The position numbers and the translations under genes are program-made. DNA of 23,672 nt from a virus (taxonomy: Duplodnaviria; Heunggongvirae; Uroviricota; Caudoviricetes): IMG/VR virus record IMGVR_UViG_2534681899_000008, one strand, 5' to 3'. Each line of letters begins with the position of its first letter. Position 1 is the first letter of the stretch. Below are positions 3,722 through 18,929 of this stretch, piece by piece. The notes under the pieces were generated by a model, which was not told the origin of the DNA, did not search any database, and saw only the letters and a program-made list of their open reading frames with translations.

Positions 3722-3947
3722 TGGCTGATGCAATGGATCTCGTACAGCAGCGCGTTGAAGAAGAACGCCAACGCCATATCCGTGCTGCCCGTGCCAAAAC
3801 GCCGGGCGTGTCCCGCGTGCTTTGCGTTGAGTGTGAAGCGCCAATTCCGCCAGCACGCCGCCGTGCCATTCCTGGAGTGAGCTTTGCATTACCTGCCAGG
3901 AAATCGCAGAGCTGAAAGGCAAACATTACAACGGAGGTGCTGTATGA
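3721..3947 (+). pseudogene. TraR/DksA-family C4 zinc-finger gene interrupted by an apparent 1-nt deletion
   Basis: Frame 1 gives the first Cys pair (VLCVECEAPIPPARRRAIPGV) then a non-conserved tail to a stop at 3915. Frame 3 from 3879 gives [22 protein letters not shown], restoring C-x2-C-x17-C-x2-C spacing and ending in a TGA that overlaps the dam ATG (ATGA). Confidence 0.55.
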
Positions 3948-4801
3948 GCACCATCCTGAAATGGGCGGGTAATAAAACCGCCATTATGTCCGAACTGAAA
4001 AAATACCTTCCTGCTGGCCCGCGACTGGTTGAACCTTTCGCGGGTTCTTGTGCTGTGATGATGGCGACGGATTACCCCAGCTATCTGGTTGCGGATATTA
4101 ATCCTGATTTAATCAACCTCTATAAAAAGATTGCCGCTGATTGCGAAGCGTTTATATCTCGTGCCAAAGTTTTATTTGAGGAAGCAAACAGTGAGCTGGC
4201 TTATTACAACATAAGACAGGAGTTTAATTACTCAACTGAAATTACTGATTTCATGAAGGCGATATATTTCCTGTATCTCAATCGTCACGGTTACCGTGGT
4301 TTATGTCGCTATAACAAGAGCGGGTATTTCAACATTCCCTACGGTAATTATAAAAATCCGTATTTCCCTGAAAAAGAAATTCGCGCATTTGCAGAGAAAG
4401 CCCAGCGGGCAACGTTTATCTGCGCGAGCTTTGATGAAACGCTGGCGATGCTGCAGGTGGGGGATGTGGTGTATTGCGATCCGCCGTATGACGGTACGTT
4501 TTCCGGCTATCACACTGATGGTTTCACTGAAGATGACCAGTATCACCTGGCATCCATTCTTGAACATCGGTCATCAGAAGGACATCCGGTCATTGTTTCT
4601 AACAATGACACATCCCTGATTCGTTCGCTGTATCGCAATTTTACTCACCACTATATCAAGGCAAAACGCAGCATCGGCGTGTCAGCTGGCGAGGGTAAAT
4701 CTGCAACAGAAATCATTGCTGTTTCCGGGCCGAGCTGCTGGTTGGGATTTGATCCTTCGCGTGGCGTGGATAGTTCTGCCGTGTACGGAGTGTGTGTATG
4801 A
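3944..4801 (+). CDS. DNA adenine methyltransferase, Dam (D12) family
   Basis: [12 protein letters not shown]-terminus, [11 protein letters not shown]-binding-like motif and DPPY catalytic motif in the translation; GGAGGTG SD upstream. Confidence 0.85.
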
Positions 4802-7212: not shown

Positions 7213-7304
7213 TTACGCTGATTAACAATTCGTGCTCTTAATAATACCAGGCATATCAGGCTGATGAACGTAAAAAAACGTTTTACATCAGTAAGATTAT
7301 TATA

Positions 7305-7324
7305 TACTGTAAATATAAACAGTA
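7305..7324 (+). promoter_or_regulatory. LexA operator (SOS box) overlapping a putative promoter
   Basis: TACTGTAAATATAAACAGTA is CTGT-N8-ACAG with an AT-rich spacer, close to the consensus TACTGTATATATATACAGTA; TTTACA (7282-7287) and TATACT (7303-7308) could form the overlapping promoter. Confidence 0.7.
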
Positions 7325-7365
7325 GTTATGTATACAGTATTGCTTGTGGTGTCATAGGAGGAAAA

Positions 7366-7554
7366 ATGCAGGACTATTTTTTGGAGTCTTTGAAGCTCCA
7401 GCGCATTGATTTTTTTCTTAAGCTTGTAGCGGCTAGTGAGTGTAGTGATGAAGAGAAGGGGCTGGCTTTGCAGTGGGTTTCTGAACTAACAGATGAACTC
7501 ATGGCAAAAATCAGAACCCACGAATACAACCGCTCAATGGATGTCATCAGTTGA
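7366..7554 (+). CDS. SOS-inducible small protein (62 aa), candidate Tum-like antirepressor
   Basis: ATG at 7366 preceded by GGAGG; first ORF downstream of the LexA box, where 186 carries tum. The longer track ORF from 7264 would overlap the operator and is rejected. Confidence 0.45.
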   Translation: MQDYFLESLKLQRIDFFLKLVAASECSDEEKGLALQWVSELTDELMAKIRTHEYNRSMDVIS

Positions 7555-7564
7555 GGTGACTTTT

Positions 7565-7798
7565 ATGCGCATTGAAATAATGATCGATAAAGAGCAGAAG
7601 ATTAGCCAGTCTACCCTGGACGCTCTGGAGTCCGAGCTTTACCGCAACCTGCAACCCATCTATCCCAAGACCGCTATCCGCATCCGTAAAGGGGCGGCAA
7701 ACGGCGTTGAGCTGAGTGGCTTAAAGCTTGATGAAGACAAAAAGCGGGTGATGGAAATTATGCAACAGGTTTGGGAAGACGACAGCTGGCTGCACTAA
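7565..7798 (+). CDS. DinI-family protein
   Basis: 77 aa beginning MRIEIMIDKEQ and ending QQVWEDDSWLH, resembling E. coli DinI in length and terminal motifs; GAGGTG SD 6 nt upstream. Confidence 0.75.
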   Translation: MRIEIMIDKEQKISQSTLDALESELYRNLQPIYPKTAIRIRKGAANGVELSGLKLDEDKKRVMEIMQQVWEDDSWLH

Positions 7799-8122
7799 GG
7801 AACGTTCCTGATGTAAGAACTTGAATCTGACGTCAGCAAGGTTGAACAACGAGAGTAGCGAGGCGTTAGCCATGGGTAAAAAAGACAGTAATCACCAGAT
7901 TATTTATCGGGGCTAGGTGCTGGAACGTTTAACCCTTGGCGACTGGGTCTTCTTTCAACGCCCAAAGGAGTGTGGCGGAGGTTTTTGGTTGGGCCGCATC
8001 TATGAAGACTGCTTCTGGCTTGAGCTGGAATTCCCCGTTTCGCTATATGACGGCCTGGGGTTTTTGATGGAAGTCACTAGGGTAGAGCAGAGAAGTGATG
8101 AGGTTGACGCGAATTATCCCCT

Positions 8123-8151
8123 GTTTGATTAAAAATGTATTAGCTTATAAT
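8123..8151 (+). promoter_or_regulatory. Candidate sigma70 promoter for the 203-aa cargo gene
   Basis: Perfect -10 TATAAT at 8146-8151 with GTTTGA at 8123-8128 (17-nt spacer), about 30 nt upstream of the ATG at 8181. Confidence 0.4.
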
Positions 8152-8180: not shown

Positions 8181-8792
8181 ATGGATTTAGTCTTTAAAGT
8201 TCTGGCTTCGTTGGGTGGGGTGTCTTTTGTTGCATCTGGCATATTTGTTTGGATCGGGAAAGTTTATTTAGAAAGATATAAGTCGCGGCTAAACAAAGAT
8301 ATTGCTGAATTTCAATCACAACTGAGTGCAACTAATGAAAGAATAAAGGCTAAGTTAGACAATTCTGTTTATGTAACGAAAGCGTATTTTGATAAGGAGT
8401 TATCAGCATATAGTCTCATTTGGAATTCGATGTTTGAAACCAGAGAAAGCGTGCTTAAGCTGAGGCCTGCGCTGGATCATGTTGACCCCAACGAACCATT
8501 TGAAGAGAGAAAATTTAGAAGGTTGAAAGTTTTTTTTGATGCATTTAACACTTTTGTTACAAGTGTTGAATCTAACAAACCGTTCATCTCACCAGAGGTT
8601 TATATAATCTTGGACCGTTTCCGGAAGGAATGCCTTTCAGAGTCAATATCGTTTAAGCATAGCGATCCAGAATTTGACGGGCAAAATTATTGGAAAGAGG
8701 CGGAGTTGAACTGTACAACCATCACCAAGCTTTTTGATGAGACGTGTGATGCAATTCGAGACAGGATGCACACATTAACTGTGGTTACGTAG
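8181..8792 (+). CDS. Membrane-anchored protein of unknown function (203 aa), cargo gene
   Basis: ATG preceded by GGTGGGGG; N-terminal hydrophobic helix LVFKVLASLGGVSFVASGIFVWIG then a charged soluble domain; AT-rich; located between the tum/dinI operon and the cos-like site, where P2 carries tin and old. Confidence 0.55.
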   Translation: MDLVFKVLASLGGVSFVASGIFVWIGKVYLERYKSRLNKDIAEFQSQLSATNERIKAKLDNSVYVTKAYFDKELSAYSLIWNSMFETRESVLKLRPALDHVDPNEPFEERKFRRLKVFFDAFNTFVTSVESNKPFISPEVYIILDRFRKECLSESISFKHSDPEFDGQNYWKEAELNCTTITKLFDETCDAIRDRMHTLTVVT

Positions 8793-8883
8793 GTTTCCAA
8801 AAAGTCTCGATGCCCGCTTTGGAGATTGTGCATGTCTATGCCGCATGAATCCGCATGATCGTTTGAGGATCGTTTTAGCTGAG

Positions 8884-8911
8884 GCCCGCCAGGAGTGGCG
8901 GGCTTTTGCTT
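8884..8911 (+). terminator. Rho-independent terminator candidate
   Basis: GCCCGCC / GGCGGGC 7-bp stem with 6-nt loop followed by TTTTGCTT. Confidence 0.5.
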
Positions 8912-8952
8912 ATGTCATGCAGGCGCATGAAAACCGCTACATAAAGCGGGCA

Positions 8953-8971
8953 GGCGTGGCGGGGATACGAT
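8953..8971. other. cos-like sequence (candidate cohesive-end site)
   Basis: GGCGTGGCGGGGATACGAT matches about 16 of 19 positions of the 186 cohesive end as I recall it (GGCGTGGCGGGGAAAGCAT; P2 GGCGAGGCGGGGAAAGCAC). Recall-based, not verified. Confidence 0.35.
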
Positions 8972-8998
8972 TGCGCGCAAGCATAGATTCTGTAATAT
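8971..8998 (+). promoter_or_regulatory. Candidate promoter for the 579-aa cargo gene
   Basis: TTGCGC (8971-8976), 16-nt spacer, TAATAT (8993-8998), about 35 nt upstream of ATG 9032. Confidence 0.3.
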
Positions 8999-9031
8999 GT
9001 ATGGCACATAGCAAATGACAAGGTGATTATT

Positions 9032-10771
9032 ATGCATGCGATCTTGAAACAATACGTCGAAGATCTTTCTAACCAATTTGCGATAGAAGAAGATGAATCG
9101 AAACTCTTCGAGTATTTTTGTAATTATGTTATTGCTTCTAAAAAGTATTTAGGACGATTTAGTCCTATCGATATCACTACTCAAGAGGATGATGCCTCAT
9201 TAGACGGAATTATCTTTCTTATTGATGGTGAATTAATAACTACTGTTGATGATGCTGAGGCGATATTTAAAACCCATAAAACATCATTGCCAGTGGAGTT
9301 AATACTTACTCAGATTAAATCTGGTGAGGCTTTTGTTAAATCAGATATTGCAAATTTCAAGATTGGCTTGGATGATTTTTTAAGTCTTAAACCGAAATTA
9401 CCAAATGGTATCTATAACACTCAAGCTATTGAAATATTGAAAGTAATATTTGCAAATGTAAAAAAAATTAAAAACAAAAAACCATCGCTTACAGTTCATT
9501 ATTGCACTAGTGGTACTTATGTTGAAGAGAGAGAAATTAAAGCTACATTTGATATAATTAAAAAATCATGCTTCGATACTGACTTTTTTGATTCTGTTGA
9601 CGTGAGACCTCTCGGGCGTAAAGAACTAATGGATATGTGGATATCCATAACCGAAAAAAATGAGGCTGAGTTACAGTTGATTGATTACATAGGTATCGAG
9701 GCTATGCCAGGTATCCCTCAATCATATATTGCAATTGTAAAAGCAAAGCATTTTATTGAGAAGCTTGCAAAAGATAGTGATGGAAAAATAAAAGAGTCAA
9801 TTTTTGAAGAAAATATACGTGCGTTCTTAGGAAGTGATAATAATGTTAATAATAAAATCTCCTCAACTTTAGAAGATAAAAAAATAAAAGCAAAACAATT
9901 TCCAGTGTTGAATAATGGAGTGACTATAATTACTCCAGAGTTATCTATACAACCAAACACAAAAGTTATAAATCTTACAAACTATCAAATTATTAATGGT
10001 TGTCAAACAACTAATACACTCTTCCATCATTACGATAATTTAAATGATGATGTTGAGATTGTTGTCAAATTTATAGAGTCTCAAGATGCTGATGTTGCAA
10101 GTAGCATAATTGAAGCAACAAATAGTCAATCAGCAATTGAGGGAGCAGCGTTTTTTGCATTGCGTGAAAAAGCTAAAATGGTGCAGAAATATTTCGATCT
10201 ACAGAGGAAAGACCCAAAACTGGAAAGTATATATTTTGAGCGGCGTGAAAATGAATATCGGCCATATGATATACAATCTACACGTATATATGATATTAAA
10301 GAACTGGCTCGTTGCTTCATATCTGTATTTAAGCGGAACCCGCACAATGCTGCTAGATATGTTAAAAAAGTACTTAGCGAAAGCGATAATATAATATTTG
10401 GTGAGGCCGATAATGAATGCGCATATTATACTGCGGCGTATATATGTTATAAGTATAATACTATGATTAACGGGCGAAGAGAAAATGCACAAAAGTATAA
10501 TAAATATAGATGGCATATTGCAATGTTATATCCTTGGGTCGTAAATAAAAAGGTTGAGAAAGTTGAATTAAATTCAAAGAAAATGAGTGCCTATTGTGAG
10601 CGTATTCTTAAAACATTTTATAACGACAACTATATTAAGCATTTTTCAAAATGCCATGAGATAATTGATGCTCTTGCTTTAGATAATGAGAATGGTGTTA
10701 CAGATGATCAACTAAAACGTGCACGATATACTACTAGTTTAATTGAAAAAGCTACTGAGATTTTGAAATAA
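9032..10771 (+). CDS. Large AT-rich cargo protein (579 aa), candidate anti-phage / abortive-infection protein (possibly AIPR-like); function unassigned
   Basis: Uninterrupted 1.74-kb ORF at roughly 30% GC by eye (backbone about 50%); AAGGTGA SD 5 nt upstream of ATG 9032; own promoter and terminator. No P-loop (so not OLD-like) and no YxDD (so not an Abi-P2-type reverse transcriptase). Motifs NNGVTIITPE and INGCQTT noted. Confidence 0.7.
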   Translation: MHAILKQYVEDLSNQFAIEEDESKLFEYFCNYVIASKKYLGRFSPIDITTQEDDASLDGIIFLIDGELITTVDDAEAIFKTHKTSLPVELILTQIKSGEAFVKSDIANFKIGLDDFLSLKPKLPNGIYNTQAIEILKVIFANVKKIKNKKPSLTVHYCTSGTYVEEREIKATFDIIKKSCFDTDFFDSVDVRPLGRKELMDMWISITEKNEAELQLIDYIGIEAMPGIPQSYIAIVKAKHFIEKLAKDSDGKIKESIFEENIRAFLGSDNNVNNKISSTLEDKKIKAKQFPVLNNGVTIITPELSIQPNTKVINLTNYQIINGCQTTNTLFHHYDNLNDDVEIVVKFIESQDADVASSIIEATNSQSAIEGAAFFALREKAKMVQKYFDLQRKDPKLESIYFERRENEYRPYDIQSTRIYDIKELARCFISVFKRNPHNAARYVKKVLSESDNIIFGEADNECAYYTAAYICYKYNTMINGRRENAQKYNKYRWHIAMLYPWVVNKKVEKVELNSKKMSAYCERILKTFYNDNYIKHFSKCHEIIDALALDNENGVTDDQLKRARYTTSLIEKATEILK

Positions 10772-10777
10772 ATGGAT

Positions 10778-10808
10778 GCAGCCCAAGGAAGGGCTGCTAA
10801 TTTTTATT
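10778..10808 (+). terminator. Rho-independent terminator between convergent cargo gene and Q
   Basis: GCAGCCC / GGGCTGC stem, 6-nt loop, followed by TAATTTTTATT; overlaps the Q stop codon on the opposite strand. Confidence 0.5.
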
Positions 10809-11835
10809 CGAAATGATACGAAAAAAAATTGATAATGTCCTCACCTAACCAATCATTAATCTCTGATATTCTTTTTTGTAAAGGTAATAGCTCATTCCTT
10901 ACAAAAACCTTACTAGCCTTCTCCACATCTCCAAATCCCCCAACATTATTAGGCATTATTCCCATCATCTGCGGCGGCACACGATGCGCCGCCATCATGT
11001 CATCCCGGCTGACGTTCTTAATATTCAAAAACTCATCCTTCGCCGCGACTTCTGACAACGGGATGATCTGAAGCCCGTCCTTTTTGCCGTTAGGCGAGTA
11101 CATAAACAGGTTGCGGAAATTGCCTGGTCCTTTAGCATTTTTCATCGCATTGCGGAGGTTGTTCACGTCCTCCTGATTCTGCGCGGCGTCGGTCATGTAC
11201 ATGATGAAGCCTGCATGGCTGCCGTTGATGTAATACTTACGGCGGAACAGCGTTGCGGACTCGTTGAGCAGGGCGGATGGAATGGCAGAAAGATAGCCGG
11301 GCAGGCCGTAGATCTCCTGGTTGATGTCCGGTTCCATCAGATGAAAAATGCTGCCTTTCGTGAACTGATACGGCTGCGTAGTTATGCCGTATTGCACAAA
11401 CCAGTAGGTATCCAGGTCTAATCCGCGTCGGGTGTATTTTGCCAGGGCAGGTTCAAGGGCGAGCACTTCACCGAAGCGGTTCGTGCGTTTCTCCAGGTAG
11501 GCGTTGCCAAATACCAGATAGTCCTGCACAAAACGTGAAAAAGCCTGCTGGCTGAGCAGCGGGTGGGGGATGTAGGTACTGGCCAGAATGTTGCACTTTA
11601 CTGCAATCGGGGAACTGTGATGCACGGCGGCGCGGAAGGTGCGAGCCAGACCGTCGAAACTCACTGGCGGCTCATACCAGCGATCTGTCTGTACGCATTC
11701 CACATAGTCCAGTAATTCTCGGCGGTCCAGAACAGGAACGGGATCGCCGAAGCTGAATGCTTCGGTTGTAGTTTGACTTTTAAGCTGGATCTGTTTCGTC
11801 GCCGCAGCGCGGTTCTTCTTACTCTTTCCCATCAA
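10804..11835 (-). CDS. Q: Portal (capsid portal) protein, P2 gpQ family
   Basis: 343 aa (P2 gpQ about 344 aa); immediately downstream of and start-overlapping the terminase ATPase gene on the same strand, as in the P2 P-Q operon. Confidence 0.8.
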   Translation of the reverse strand: MMGKSKKNRAAATKQIQLKSQTTTEAFSFGDPVPVLDRRELLDYVECVQTDRWYEPPVSFDGLARTFRAAVHHSSPIAVKCNILASTYIPHPLLSQQAFSRFVQDYLVFGNAYLEKRTNRFGEVLALEPALAKYTRRGLDLDTYWFVQYGITTQPYQFTKGSIFHLMEPDINQEIYGLPGYLSAIPSALLNESATLFRRKYYINGSHAGFIMYMTDAAQNQEDVNNLRNAMKNAKGPGNFRNLFMYSPNGKKDGLQIIPLSEVAAKDEFLNIKNVSRDDMMAAHRVPPQMMGIMPNNVGGFGDVEKASKVFVRNELLPLQKRISEINDWLGEDIINFFSYHFE

Positions 11836-16880: not shown

Positions 16881-18929
16881 ATGTCGAAAGGGGCGGACAT
16901 CATTGATGTGATGCAGCGTCTGGGCGGTGTGGCTGACCGTCTGGATTATCGTAAAGCGGCGGCGCTGGGTTCCACCTTCCTGACACTGGGCGCTGCGCCG
17001 GAGGTTGCAGCCAGTGCAGCAAACGCGATGGTGCGTGAATTGTCTATTGCCACCATGCAGAGCAAGAGTTTTTTTGAAGGGATGAATCTGCTGAAACTCA
17101 ATCCTGAAGTGATTGAAAAACAGATGACGAAGGATGCGATGGGAACCATCCAGCGCGTGCTGGAGAAGGTGAATGCATTGCCGCAGGATAAGCGCCTGTC
17201 TGCTATGACCATGTTGTTTGGTAAAGAGTTTGGCGATGACGCGGCGAAACTGGCAAACAACCTGCCGGAGCTGCAGCGCCAGTTAAAACTAACAGCGGGC
17301 AATGATGCGCTCGGTTCCATGCAGAAAGAATCCGACATCAACAAGGATTCACTTTCTGCGCAGTGGTTGCTGGTCAAAACCGGAGCACAGAACACCTTCA
17401 GCAGCCTGGGCGAAACGCTGCGCCAGCCGCTGATGGATATTCTGTACATGGTGAAAAGCGTCACGGGGGCGTCGCGTCGCTGGGTGGAAGCTAACCCGGA
17501 ACTGACGGGCACACTGATGAAAGTAGCCGCTGTTGTGGCTGCTGTTACCGTGGGCCTCGGCACCCTAGCTGTGGTGTTGGCTGCTGTGCTGGGGCCGCTG
17601 GCAGTCATCCGTCTGGGATTCTCTGTACTGGGTATCAAAACGTTACCTTCCGTTGCGGCAGCAGTAACCCGAACCCGCAACGCGTTGTCCTGGCTGGCTG
17701 GCGCTCCACTGGCACTGCTGCGACGCGGGTTTGCTTCATCGGGCAAGGCCGCAGGTTTACTTACTGCGCCGTTGTCGTCTTTGCGCCGCACGGCATCACT
17801 GACGAGAAATGTCCTGAAAACTGTAGCAGGTGCGCCGGTTGCACTGTTGCGATCTGGATTATCCGGTTTACGTACTGTTGCTGTGATGTTTATGAATCCT
17901 CTGGCGGTACTGCGCGGTGGACTGGCTGCCGCAGGCGCGGTGCTTCGTGTGCTTGCATCCGGTCCGCTGGCGATGCTGCGCGTTGCCCTGTATGCCGTAT
18001 CTGGTCTGTTAGGTGCTCTGCTCAGTCCGATAGGTCTTGTGGTTACTGCACTGGCGGGCGTGGCGCTGGTTGTCTGGAAATACTGGCAACCCATCACCGC
18101 ATTTCTTGGTGGCGTGGTGGAAGGATTCAAAGCGGCGGCAGGTCCCGTCAGTGCAGCATTCGAACCGCTTAAGCCCGTGTTCCAGTGGATTGGCGACAAA
18201 GTACAGGCGCTGTGGGGCTGGTTTACTAATCTGCTGACGCCCGTTAAGTCGACCTCTGCCGAACTGCAGAGTGCAGCGGCAATGGGGCGGAGATTCGGGG
18301 AGGCACTGGCGGAAGGGCTGAATATGGTCATGCATCCGCTGGACTCCCTGAAATCCGGCGTTTCCTGGTTGCTGGAGAAGCTCGGCATTGTCAGTAAAGA
18401 GGCCGCAAAGGCAAAACTGCCGGAAAGCGTGACGCGTCAGCAACCTGCGACGGTGAATGCAGACGGTAAAGTGATGATGCCATCGGGTGGTTTTCCATCA
18501 TGGGGATATGGCTTTGCGGGGATGTATGACAGCGGCGGGTATATCCCGCGCGGGCAGTTTGGCATCGTCGGTGAAAACGGGCCGGAAATTGTTAACGGCC
18601 CGGCAAATGTGACCAGCCGGAGAAATACAGCTGCACTGGCTGCCGTTGTTGCCGGAATGATGGGCGTTGCTGCCGCACCAGCAGAGCTTCCACCGTTGCA
18701 CCCTTTGGCACTTCCCGCGAAAGGTGGAGAAGCAATTGTGAGTCGCGCAGCCACTGTGCCGCCCGTTTACAGGATTGAGGCACCGACGCAGATCATCATC
18801 CAGACGCAGCCAGGACAAAGTGCGCAGGATATTGCGCGGGAGGTGGCCCGCCAGCTTGATGAACGTGAACGCAGGTTGAAGGCAAAAGCCAGGAGTAACT
18901 ACAGCGATCAGGGGGGATACGACGCATGA
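16881..18929 (+). CDS. T: Tail tape measure protein, P2 gpT family, apparently N-terminally truncated
   Basis: 682 aa (P2 gpT 815 aa) with Ala/Leu-rich repeated segments (PLALLRRG, PVALLRSG, PLAVLRGG, PLAMLRVA); stop overlaps the U start. The frame is open from 16803, so the true 5' end is uncertain. Confidence 0.65.
   Translation: MSKGADIIDVMQRLGGVADRLDYRKAAALGSTFLTLGAAPEVAASAANAMVRELSIATMQSKSFFEGMNLLKLNPEVIEKQMTKDAMGTIQRVLEKVNALPQDKRLSAMTMLFGKEFGDDAAKLANNLPELQRQLKLTAGNDALGSMQKESDINKDSLSAQWLLVKTGAQNTFSSLGETLRQPLMDILYMVKSVTGASRRWVEANPELTGTLMKVAAVVAAVTVGLGTLAVVLAAVLGPLAVIRLGFSVLGIKTLPSVAAAVTRTRNALSWLAGAPLALLRRGFASSGKAAGLLTAPLSSLRRTASLTRNVLKTVAGAPVALLRSGLSGLRTVAVMFMNPLAVLRGGLAAAGAVLRVLASGPLAMLRVALYAVSGLLGALLSPIGLVVTALAGVALVVWKYWQPITAFLGGVVEGFKAAAGPVSAAFEPLKPVFQWIGDKVQALWGWFTNLLTPVKSTSAELQSAAAMGRRFGEALAEGLNMVMHPLDSLKSGVSWLLEKLGIVSKEAAKAKLPESVTRQQPATVNADGKVMMPSGGFPSWGYGFAGMYDSGGYIPRGQFGIVGENGPEIVNGPANVTSRRNTAALAAVVAGMMGVAAAPAELPPLHPLALPAKGGEAIVSRAATVPPVYRIEAPTQIIIQTQPGQSAQDIAREVARQLDERERRLKAKARSNYSDQGGYDA

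Follow-up and report, generated by a model that had tools for sequence, protein, structure and literature searches.

Introduction

AbiU (AbiU1/AbiUi), an abortive infection (Abi) protein of Lactococcus lactis LL51-1 for which PADLOC and DefenseFinder now hold models, has anti-phage phenotypes described in Lactococcus in 2001 and in Vibrio in 2024. According to the account of Dai 2001 given in a 2026 FEMS review (PMC13064643), AbiUi alone reduced the efficiency of plating (EOP, 10^-1 to 10^-2) of three lactococcal phage groups and delayed phage transcription. The Vibrio AbiU was validated as a defense system and is neutralized by the phage protein Surt (bioRxiv 10.1101/2024.06.14.598830). In this work, the 23,672 nucleotides of the IMG/VR virus record IMGVR_UViG_2534681899_000008 (Caudoviricetes; “the window” hereafter means this whole stretch of DNA) were analyzed, and the subject is a 579-aa AbiU/AIPR gene, at 9032..10771 on the plus strand, that lies beside the cos site of a P2-like prophage of Escherichia coli.

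The second body of knowledge that bears on this gene concerns its position. Rousset et al., 2022 (PMC9122126) defined the cos-proximal stretch between gpA and gpQ of P2-like prophages as a hotspot in which anti-phage systems are found. In P2 itself, tin and old are both on the A side; OLD combines an ATPase with a Toprim nuclease. A related architecture is found in GmrSD, BrxU, and SspE, in which a DUF262 ParB-like NTPase controls a DUF1524 HNH nuclease.

The E. coli gene shares with lactococcal AbiU its length class, a full-length collinear homology, the invariant E..D..QxK, NNGxT, NGCQT, TNxQ, and ERR residues, carriage by a mobile element, and a single-gene organization, which was sufficient in Lactococcus in the account cited above. 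It differs in being only 23–26% identical to the lactococcal plasmid proteins, in lying on a P2-like prophage of E. coli instead of a lactococcal plasmid, and in having no AbiU2/HEPN gene downstream. It resembles the known P2 hotspot cargo (tin/old and the systems of Rousset et al., 2022) in its low GC content, its variability, and its position beside cos in a prophage of the P2 family; however, this gene lies on the Q side of cos, as in Fels-2, and not on the A side, where tin and old are located. The gene is a moron in the cos-proximal gpA-gpQ defense hotspot of a 186/Fels-2-like prophage of the P2 family, and its product is probably an anti-phage nuclease of the AbiU type that works from a single gene.

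Results

Family Assignment by Profile Searches

Three profile collections placed the protein, which is identical to RefSeq WP_001593244, in the same family. The Pfam profile AIPR (PF10592) matched residues 258–520 over profile positions 1–274 of 308, with 143.3 bits against a cut-off of 25 (E = 1.7e-41), and the PADLOC profile AbiU (PDLC02357) covered residues 2–575 over positions 3–535 of 537 (359 bits, E = 1.4e-107). An end-to-end match was also obtained with PHROG 1841, annotated as “Abi alpha-like abortive infection mechanism” (E = 1.4e-138). In RefSeq, the identical protein carries the name “AIPR family protein.” Judged by homology, the protein is a member of the AbiU/AIPR family. The likeness to AIPR proteins, which the initial annotation had suggested, was thus borne out by the hidden Markov model search, whereas its description as a protein of unassigned family gave way to the full-length AbiU match and to the RefSeq name.

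Other candidate families were tried and rejected. The MzaE profile (NCBIfam NF041935) gave 34 bits against a cut-off of 1050 (E = 1.1e-8), limited to residues 254–376, and no Mza partner gene was found beside the AIPR gene, whose neighbors are DinI, a hypothetical protein, and the portal gene. Hence, the protein has the AIPR core in common with MzaE of the MZA system but is not a member of that family. The OLD family was discarded on the absence of the Walker A motif [AG]xxxxGK[ST], in which the protein differs from the ATPase-Toprim nuclease OLD, and of any ATPase- or Toprim-type match in Pfam or PADLOC. The reverse transcriptases of the Abi-P2/AbiA/AbiK type were discarded likewise, since neither a YxDD motif nor an RVT match in Pfam was present; in both respects the earlier reading of the open reading frame (ORF) held. 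DUF262 and DUF1524 were not matched in the Pfam search either. The two motifs highlighted at first sight, NNGVTIITPE (from residue 294) and INGCQTT (from residue 321), both fall within the AIPR core.

Predicted Domain Architecture and a Proposed Mechanism

A structural model was obtained with AlphaFold2 from an alignment of 42 sequences (mean predicted local distance difference test score, pLDDT, of 83.7; predicted template modeling score, pTM, of 0.45) and was used in place of a single-sequence model, which was discarded for its pLDDT of 31.7. The model suggests a two-module fold, the modules being modeled with confidence, in which a putative nuclease domain comes first, an AIPR core that may be ParB/Srx-like occupies the center, and a helical region forms the C-terminus.

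The N-terminal domain (9032..9781, plus strand; approximately residues 1–250) is predicted to be a PD-(D/E)XK nuclease of the FokI/Mrr/MspJI type, with a core fold like that of the solved Mrr/MspJI/FokI-like members. Its candidate signature residues are E27 (9110–9112), D58 (9203–9205), Q94 (9311–9313), and K96 (9317–9319), their assignment to catalytic positions being inferred from the order of secondary-structure elements in the model. Among 114 homologues with 23–48% identity, D58 was conserved in all, E27 and Q94 in 112 each, and K96 in 104. The consensus DxGIDG...FIQxK corresponds to the D...QxK signature of Mrr/MspJI-type enzymes.

The AIPR core, predicted to be ParB/Srx-like, corresponds to the Pfam match (residues 258–520; 9803..10591, plus strand) and contains the motifs N294-N295-G296-x-T298 (NNG at 9911–9919), N322-G323-C324-Q325-T326 (9995–10009), T363-N364-x-Q366, and E403-R404-R405. 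The residues N261, R263, N273, N295-G296, N322-G323-(C)-Q325-T326, N364, and R404 of this core were invariant in 114/114 homologues. Furthermore, E27, D58, Q94, K96, and the motifs NNGxT, NGxQT, TNxQ, and RR were invariant in an alignment of eight sequences that included lactococcal (L. cremoris pC42), mycobacteriophage, Fels-2, and E. coli plasmid proteins.

When the model was compared by Foldseek with predicted viral structures (BFVD), an AIPR protein was retrieved with E = 7e-12, together with weak but repeated matches to GmrSD N-terminal/DUF262 proteins (best E = 2e-3) and to DndB-like proteins (E = 0.11); a weak similarity to ParB-N was also observed. These fold findings agree with Makarova et al. 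and with the 2026 FEMS review, in which an AbiU model is superposed on FokI (PMC13064643). Additionally, the dual-nuclease defense protein Upx clusters beside AbiU-1 in a published PD-(D/E)XK tree.

The predicted architecture is comparable to that of GmrSD, BrxU, and SspE in joining a putative ParB/Srx-like module and a putative DNA nuclease in one polypeptide, but the order is reversed, with the nuclease first, and the nuclease is of the PD-(D/E)XK instead of the HNH type. The motif also differs, NGCQT standing presumably in the place of DGQQR, with the Arg missing. AbiU1/AIPR proteins were grouped with COG1479 by Makarova 2013.

In the mechanism that we favor, the AbiU/AIPR protein would be produced in the lysogen, and its ParB-like AIPR core together with the helical C-terminus would form a sensor or gate that binds a nucleotide or an infection-specific feature of DNA. 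The AIPR module would then license the N-terminal PD-(D/E)XK domain, the effector, to act as a DNA endonuclease or nickase. This nuclease would cut or nick the DNA of the superinfecting phage, and possibly that of the host too, and the cutting would block early phage gene expression, which fits the delay in phage transcription that lactococcal AbiU1 was reported to cause.

The same domains would be expected if the protein were instead a type IV modification-dependent restriction enzyme (Mrr/MspJI/GmrSD-like) that directly recognizes modified phage DNA and destroys it while the host survives, a reading that we regard as unlikely. It draws on the resemblance of the AIPR core to the N-terminal domain of GmrSD, on the presence of type IV restriction enzymes and methyltransferases beside some distant homologues, and on the link between AbiU1/AIPR and restriction-modification (R-M) systems (Makarova 2012 and 2013). 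Nevertheless, no modified-base reader domain (SRA or Mrr-like winged helix) was detected by Pfam. Modified DNA is not known from the lactococcal phages on which AbiU1 acts. The host E. coli is itself Dam/Dcm methylated, and the prophage has a Dam-like methylase; therefore, a methyl-directed enzyme would need a narrow specificity. The AbiU1 effect, as given in the review cited above (PMC13064643), was a delay of transcription with a modest drop in EOP, which also speaks against the destruction of modified DNA.

Homologues and Their Neighborhoods

A scan of 1.84 billion cluster representatives returned 478 proteins at E ≤ 1e-30, each standing for a cluster at 50% identity, and 3344 at E ≤ 1e-3; nearly all of these homologues were of about 570 aa and collinear over their full length. 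When a single genome of each species was scanned with a pattern, at least 587 loci were confirmed, spanning Proteobacteria, Firmicutes, Bacteroidota, Cyanobacteria, Actinobacteria, Acidobacteriota, and other groups. A profile of the AIPR core only, run against a set of 5.8 billion proteins, yielded only proteins of 350 aa or less that were annotated with PF10592 alone and came mostly from short contigs.

The connection to Lactococcus was recovered by tblastn, in which AIPR genes on Lactococcus cremoris plasmids matched 81% of the query with 26% identity (E = 3e-18). On one of these plasmids, pC42, an AIPR gene of 589 aa is followed by a gene of 341 aa, a pair that we take to be the AbiU1/AbiU2 layout.

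Closer homologues travel on mobile elements, in a P2-like prophage, in a P4-like satellite, and beside integrases. In phage Fels-2 (NC_010463), STM2723.1 is 32% identical over its full length and occupies the same slot, in the order DinI-hypothetical-cos-[AIPR]-Q-P. In a P2-like prophage of Serratia, S and V flank a homologue of 77% identity. Integrase genes adjoin a 65%-identical homologue in a P4-like satellite of Salmonella/Citrobacter, a 73%-identical one in Klebsiella, and a 52%-identical one in a Variovorax prophage. One further homologue adjoins Tse2/Tsi2 and transposases, and another stands alone amid housekeeping genes in Vibrio cholerae. Divergent AbiU/AIPR alleles fill several cargo slots of P2 and P4. 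As a separate observation, the homologue of the P4-like satellite always adjoins a protein of 476 aa that has no Pfam match.

A conserved partner was sought among the 143 nearest-neighbor ORFs of 80 distant homologues, and no Pfam or PADLOC family occurred more than twice. These neighbors included R-M components, type IV enzymes, Septu PtuA, PDC candidates, resolvases, transposases, and ordinary metabolic genes, the data being counts per family. Since no partner gene is conserved, these results are consistent with a gene that acts alone.

The same mobility would also suit a selfish addiction or toxin-like gene, or a moron with a role other than defense, that stabilizes the prophage or satellite or excludes competing mobile elements, such as plasmids or P4-type satellites, instead of lytic phages. 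The family rides prophages, satellites, plasmids, and integrase-bearing islands, the gene persists here in a defective prophage, and another E. coli AIPR gene is absent from the systems validated against eight phages (Rousset et al., 2022). Such a role is nevertheless quite improbable: a conserved antitoxin-like partner is missing, anti-phage phenotypes were measured for two family members, and a phage-encoded inhibitor of AbiU exists, which argues for phages as the target.

The cos-Q Cargo Slot and Its Prophage

The left border of the slot was read directly from the sequence as the cohesive-end core of cos, GGCGTGGCGGGGATACGAT, at approximately 8953–8971, with a conserved flank to about 8985. 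This core matches the P2/P4 cos sequences printed in Table S2 of Rousset et al., 2022 (PMC9122126), and also the Fels-2 sequence. When the complete E. coli genomes were searched with megablast, the likeness to other P2-like prophages ended at about 8985, as does that to Fels-2; therefore, the cargo begins directly after the cos flank. The flank was present in 1153 of 5426 complete E. coli genomes, but the AIPR gene, at 98.7% identity or more, in only nine (chicken, human, and yak isolates; 98.7–100% identity), two of which carried identical DNA. The right border is the portal gene Q of the backbone (10804..11835, minus strand). Between cos and Q there are 1.83 kb here, against 167 nt in P2, where only tQ is inside.

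The description of a low-GC cargo gene next to cos in a P2-like prophage was correct: the ORF has a GC content of 31.7% (23.1% at third codon positions, GC3), compared with 54.5% for the Q-P genes and 52.7% (GC3 56.8%) for gene A. The AIPR gene lies between gpA and gpQ, beside cos, in a variable position, and belongs to the P2 cos-proximal hotspot. Table S5A of Rousset et al., 2022 (PMC9122126) already lists WP_001154434, WP_001593241, WP_001593243, and WP_001593244 together as P2-hotspot cargo, and the same AIPR protein appears with other neighbors in CP032237 (Rousset et al., 2022, PMC9122126). The gene is not new, because its family, its hotspot, and its accession had already been published or annotated, and the initial proposal of a new single-gene defense candidate was superseded by that exact arrangement. 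The family has been known since 2001, it has a Pfam domain and is called AbiU by the standard defense finders, and the hotspot was described in 2022.

From the ATG at 9032, the ORF encodes 579 aa; the alternative start GTG 9023 lies within the Shine-Dalgarno sequence of that ATG, CAAGGTGA (9019–9026, plus strand), which is placed six nucleotides 5′ of it. Downstream, a GC-rich hairpin, GCAGCCC-AAGGAA-GGGCTGC (10778..10797), with a predicted energy of -14.9 kcal/mol and followed by the T-rich TAATTTTTAT, separates the AIPR stop codon (10769–10771) from the stop codon of Q on the minus strand (10804–10806). It is likely a bidirectional terminator of the convergent abiU and Q genes. In P2, the terminator tQ is annotated at the equivalent place; the sequence of the hairpin is unlike that of Fels-2. 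Both the strong Shine-Dalgarno sequence and the terminator shared with Q had been recognized in the initial annotation.

The window was found to be nearly identical, with two substitutions and one indel, to a prophage of about 21 kb of E. coli FDN-11, a chicken isolate, in which the element is inserted between rcdA and ybjL. The gene order is int, CI, CII, Fil, Dam-like methylase, A, a small ORF, DinI, an ORF of 203 aa, and cos, followed by the AIPR gene, Q, P, O, N, M, L, a 5′-truncated tape-measure gene, U, D, and ogr. The head-completion gene L (16336/16399–16860) directly precedes the truncated tape-measure ORF (16881–18929), annotated in RefSeq as a pseudogene without its N-terminus; therefore, the P2-type lysis, tail-completion, baseplate, tail-fiber, sheath, and tube genes are missing. 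The prophage belongs to the P2 family, is 186/Fels-2-like, and is defective.

Other Genes of the Prophage

On the A side of cos, an ORF of 203 aa (8181–8792, plus strand) has a GC content of 38.6% and a hydrophobic N-terminal helix, and matched nothing in Pfam (above threshold) or PADLOC. Lying where P2 has tin/old, it is a second low-GC cargo gene, unassigned to any family. A functional tie between it and the AIPR gene was considered and rejected, as cos lies between the two and the AIPR gene has other neighbors in CP032237. Between gene A and the ORF of 203 aa, a DinI-family ORF (7565–7798; Pfam E = 7e-24) is TumB-like according to the Fels-2 annotation, and the small ORFs at 7264–7554 and 7917–8132 had no Pfam or PADLOC match. 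Two short ORFs across cos, of 57 aa (8845–9018, plus strand) and 53 aa (8915–9076, minus strand), matched no family and are most likely spurious.

The DNA adenine methylase gene (approximately 3944–4801, plus strand) lies directly 5′ of gene A and overlaps it, according to the RefSeq annotation. Fels-2 also carries this gene, noted there as resembling the Dam methylase of retron Ec67. This enzyme would become relevant if the AbiU nuclease proves methylation-sensitive.

Discussion

Several points weigh against reading the gene as an active AbiU-type anti-phage nuclease. The fold search, which among the predicted viral structures retrieved the AIPR match and the weak GmrSD/DUF262/DndB ones, gave no significant match in the PDB with Foldseek. 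When the sequences of the PDB were searched with a profile, no relative was retrieved (best E 0.49). The relative placement of the domains in the model is unreliable, because its pTM was only 0.45. The Arg of the DUF262 (DGQQR), DndB (DGQHR), and sulfiredoxin (GCHR) motifs is the phosphate-binding position. In NGCQT, this position is presumably taken by a Thr (T326, 114/114); because Thr would replace Arg, a nucleotide binding of the ParB/GmrSD kind is not assured.

To these structural points are added those from experiments. The lactococcal AbiU phenotype was weak, and no published experiment was found on this allele or on any relative of 50% identity or more. The sole E. coli AIPR protein tested, that of pFR77 from the P4 hotspot, was listed among “additional tested systems” and not among the validated ones (Rousset et al., 2022, PMC9122126). 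The pFR77 protein (from E. coli E1167) is similar in its NNGIT and NGAQT core, in an N-terminal region of the D...QxK type, and in being cos-adjacent cargo of an element of the P2/P4 system. The negative result transfers poorly, though, because the identity to the protein studied here is 23% and limited to the AIPR core.

The last points against concern expression. A promoter scan (threshold 9/12) of the plus strand 5′ of the AIPR ORF found no site, and the sole candidate is a weak sigma-70 promoter read from the sequence, TTGCGC (8971–8976)-N16-TAATAT (8993–8998), with 7/12 matches (8971..8998, plus strand), whose putative -35 lies within the conserved cos flank and whose putative -10 lies within the cargo. 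The promoter of its own that the initial annotation ascribed to the gene was consequently downgraded to plausible. Moreover, the prophage is defective, so that selection on the AIPR gene would act via the host, or the gene would be a remnant.

That the ORF is such an inactive remnant, intact in appearance but not expressed or not functional, is nevertheless a very remote prospect. The loss of the lysis and tail genes and the lack of a consensus promoter would suit it; however, the frame of 579 codons is intact with all family-invariant residues present, the gene is kept at 98.7–100% identity in the nine genomes from chicken, human, and yak, and both a good Shine-Dalgarno sequence and a terminator accompany it.

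A further interpretation, possible though doubtful, is that AbiU/AIPR proteins, the P2-borne clade included, make up a class of single-chain immune nucleases with a mechanism of its own. In such proteins, a degenerate ParB/Srx-like module (NGCQT, without the canonical Arg) would sense a phage protein or a DNA structure instead of a nucleoside triphosphate, and this sensing would switch on the Mrr-like nuclease. If this were true, its elucidation in E. coli with coliphages would supply an Abi system orphaned since 2001 with its first mechanism, and it would explain why divergent alleles, the 32%-identical one of Fels-2 among them, replace one another in the same cos-Q slot.

The gene had initially been called poorly characterized. 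This stands for the mechanism of AbiU but not for its phenotypes, described in both Lactococcus and Vibrio. The value of the locus therefore lies in offering a tractable E. coli representative of a widespread single-gene AbiU. A compact protein of 579 aa suits mechanistic work, with D58, Q94, and K96 as candidate catalytic residues and N322–T326 and R404–R405 as candidate positions of the sensor module. Additionally, the gene matters for predicting the phage susceptibility of the avian and human E. coli that carry it.

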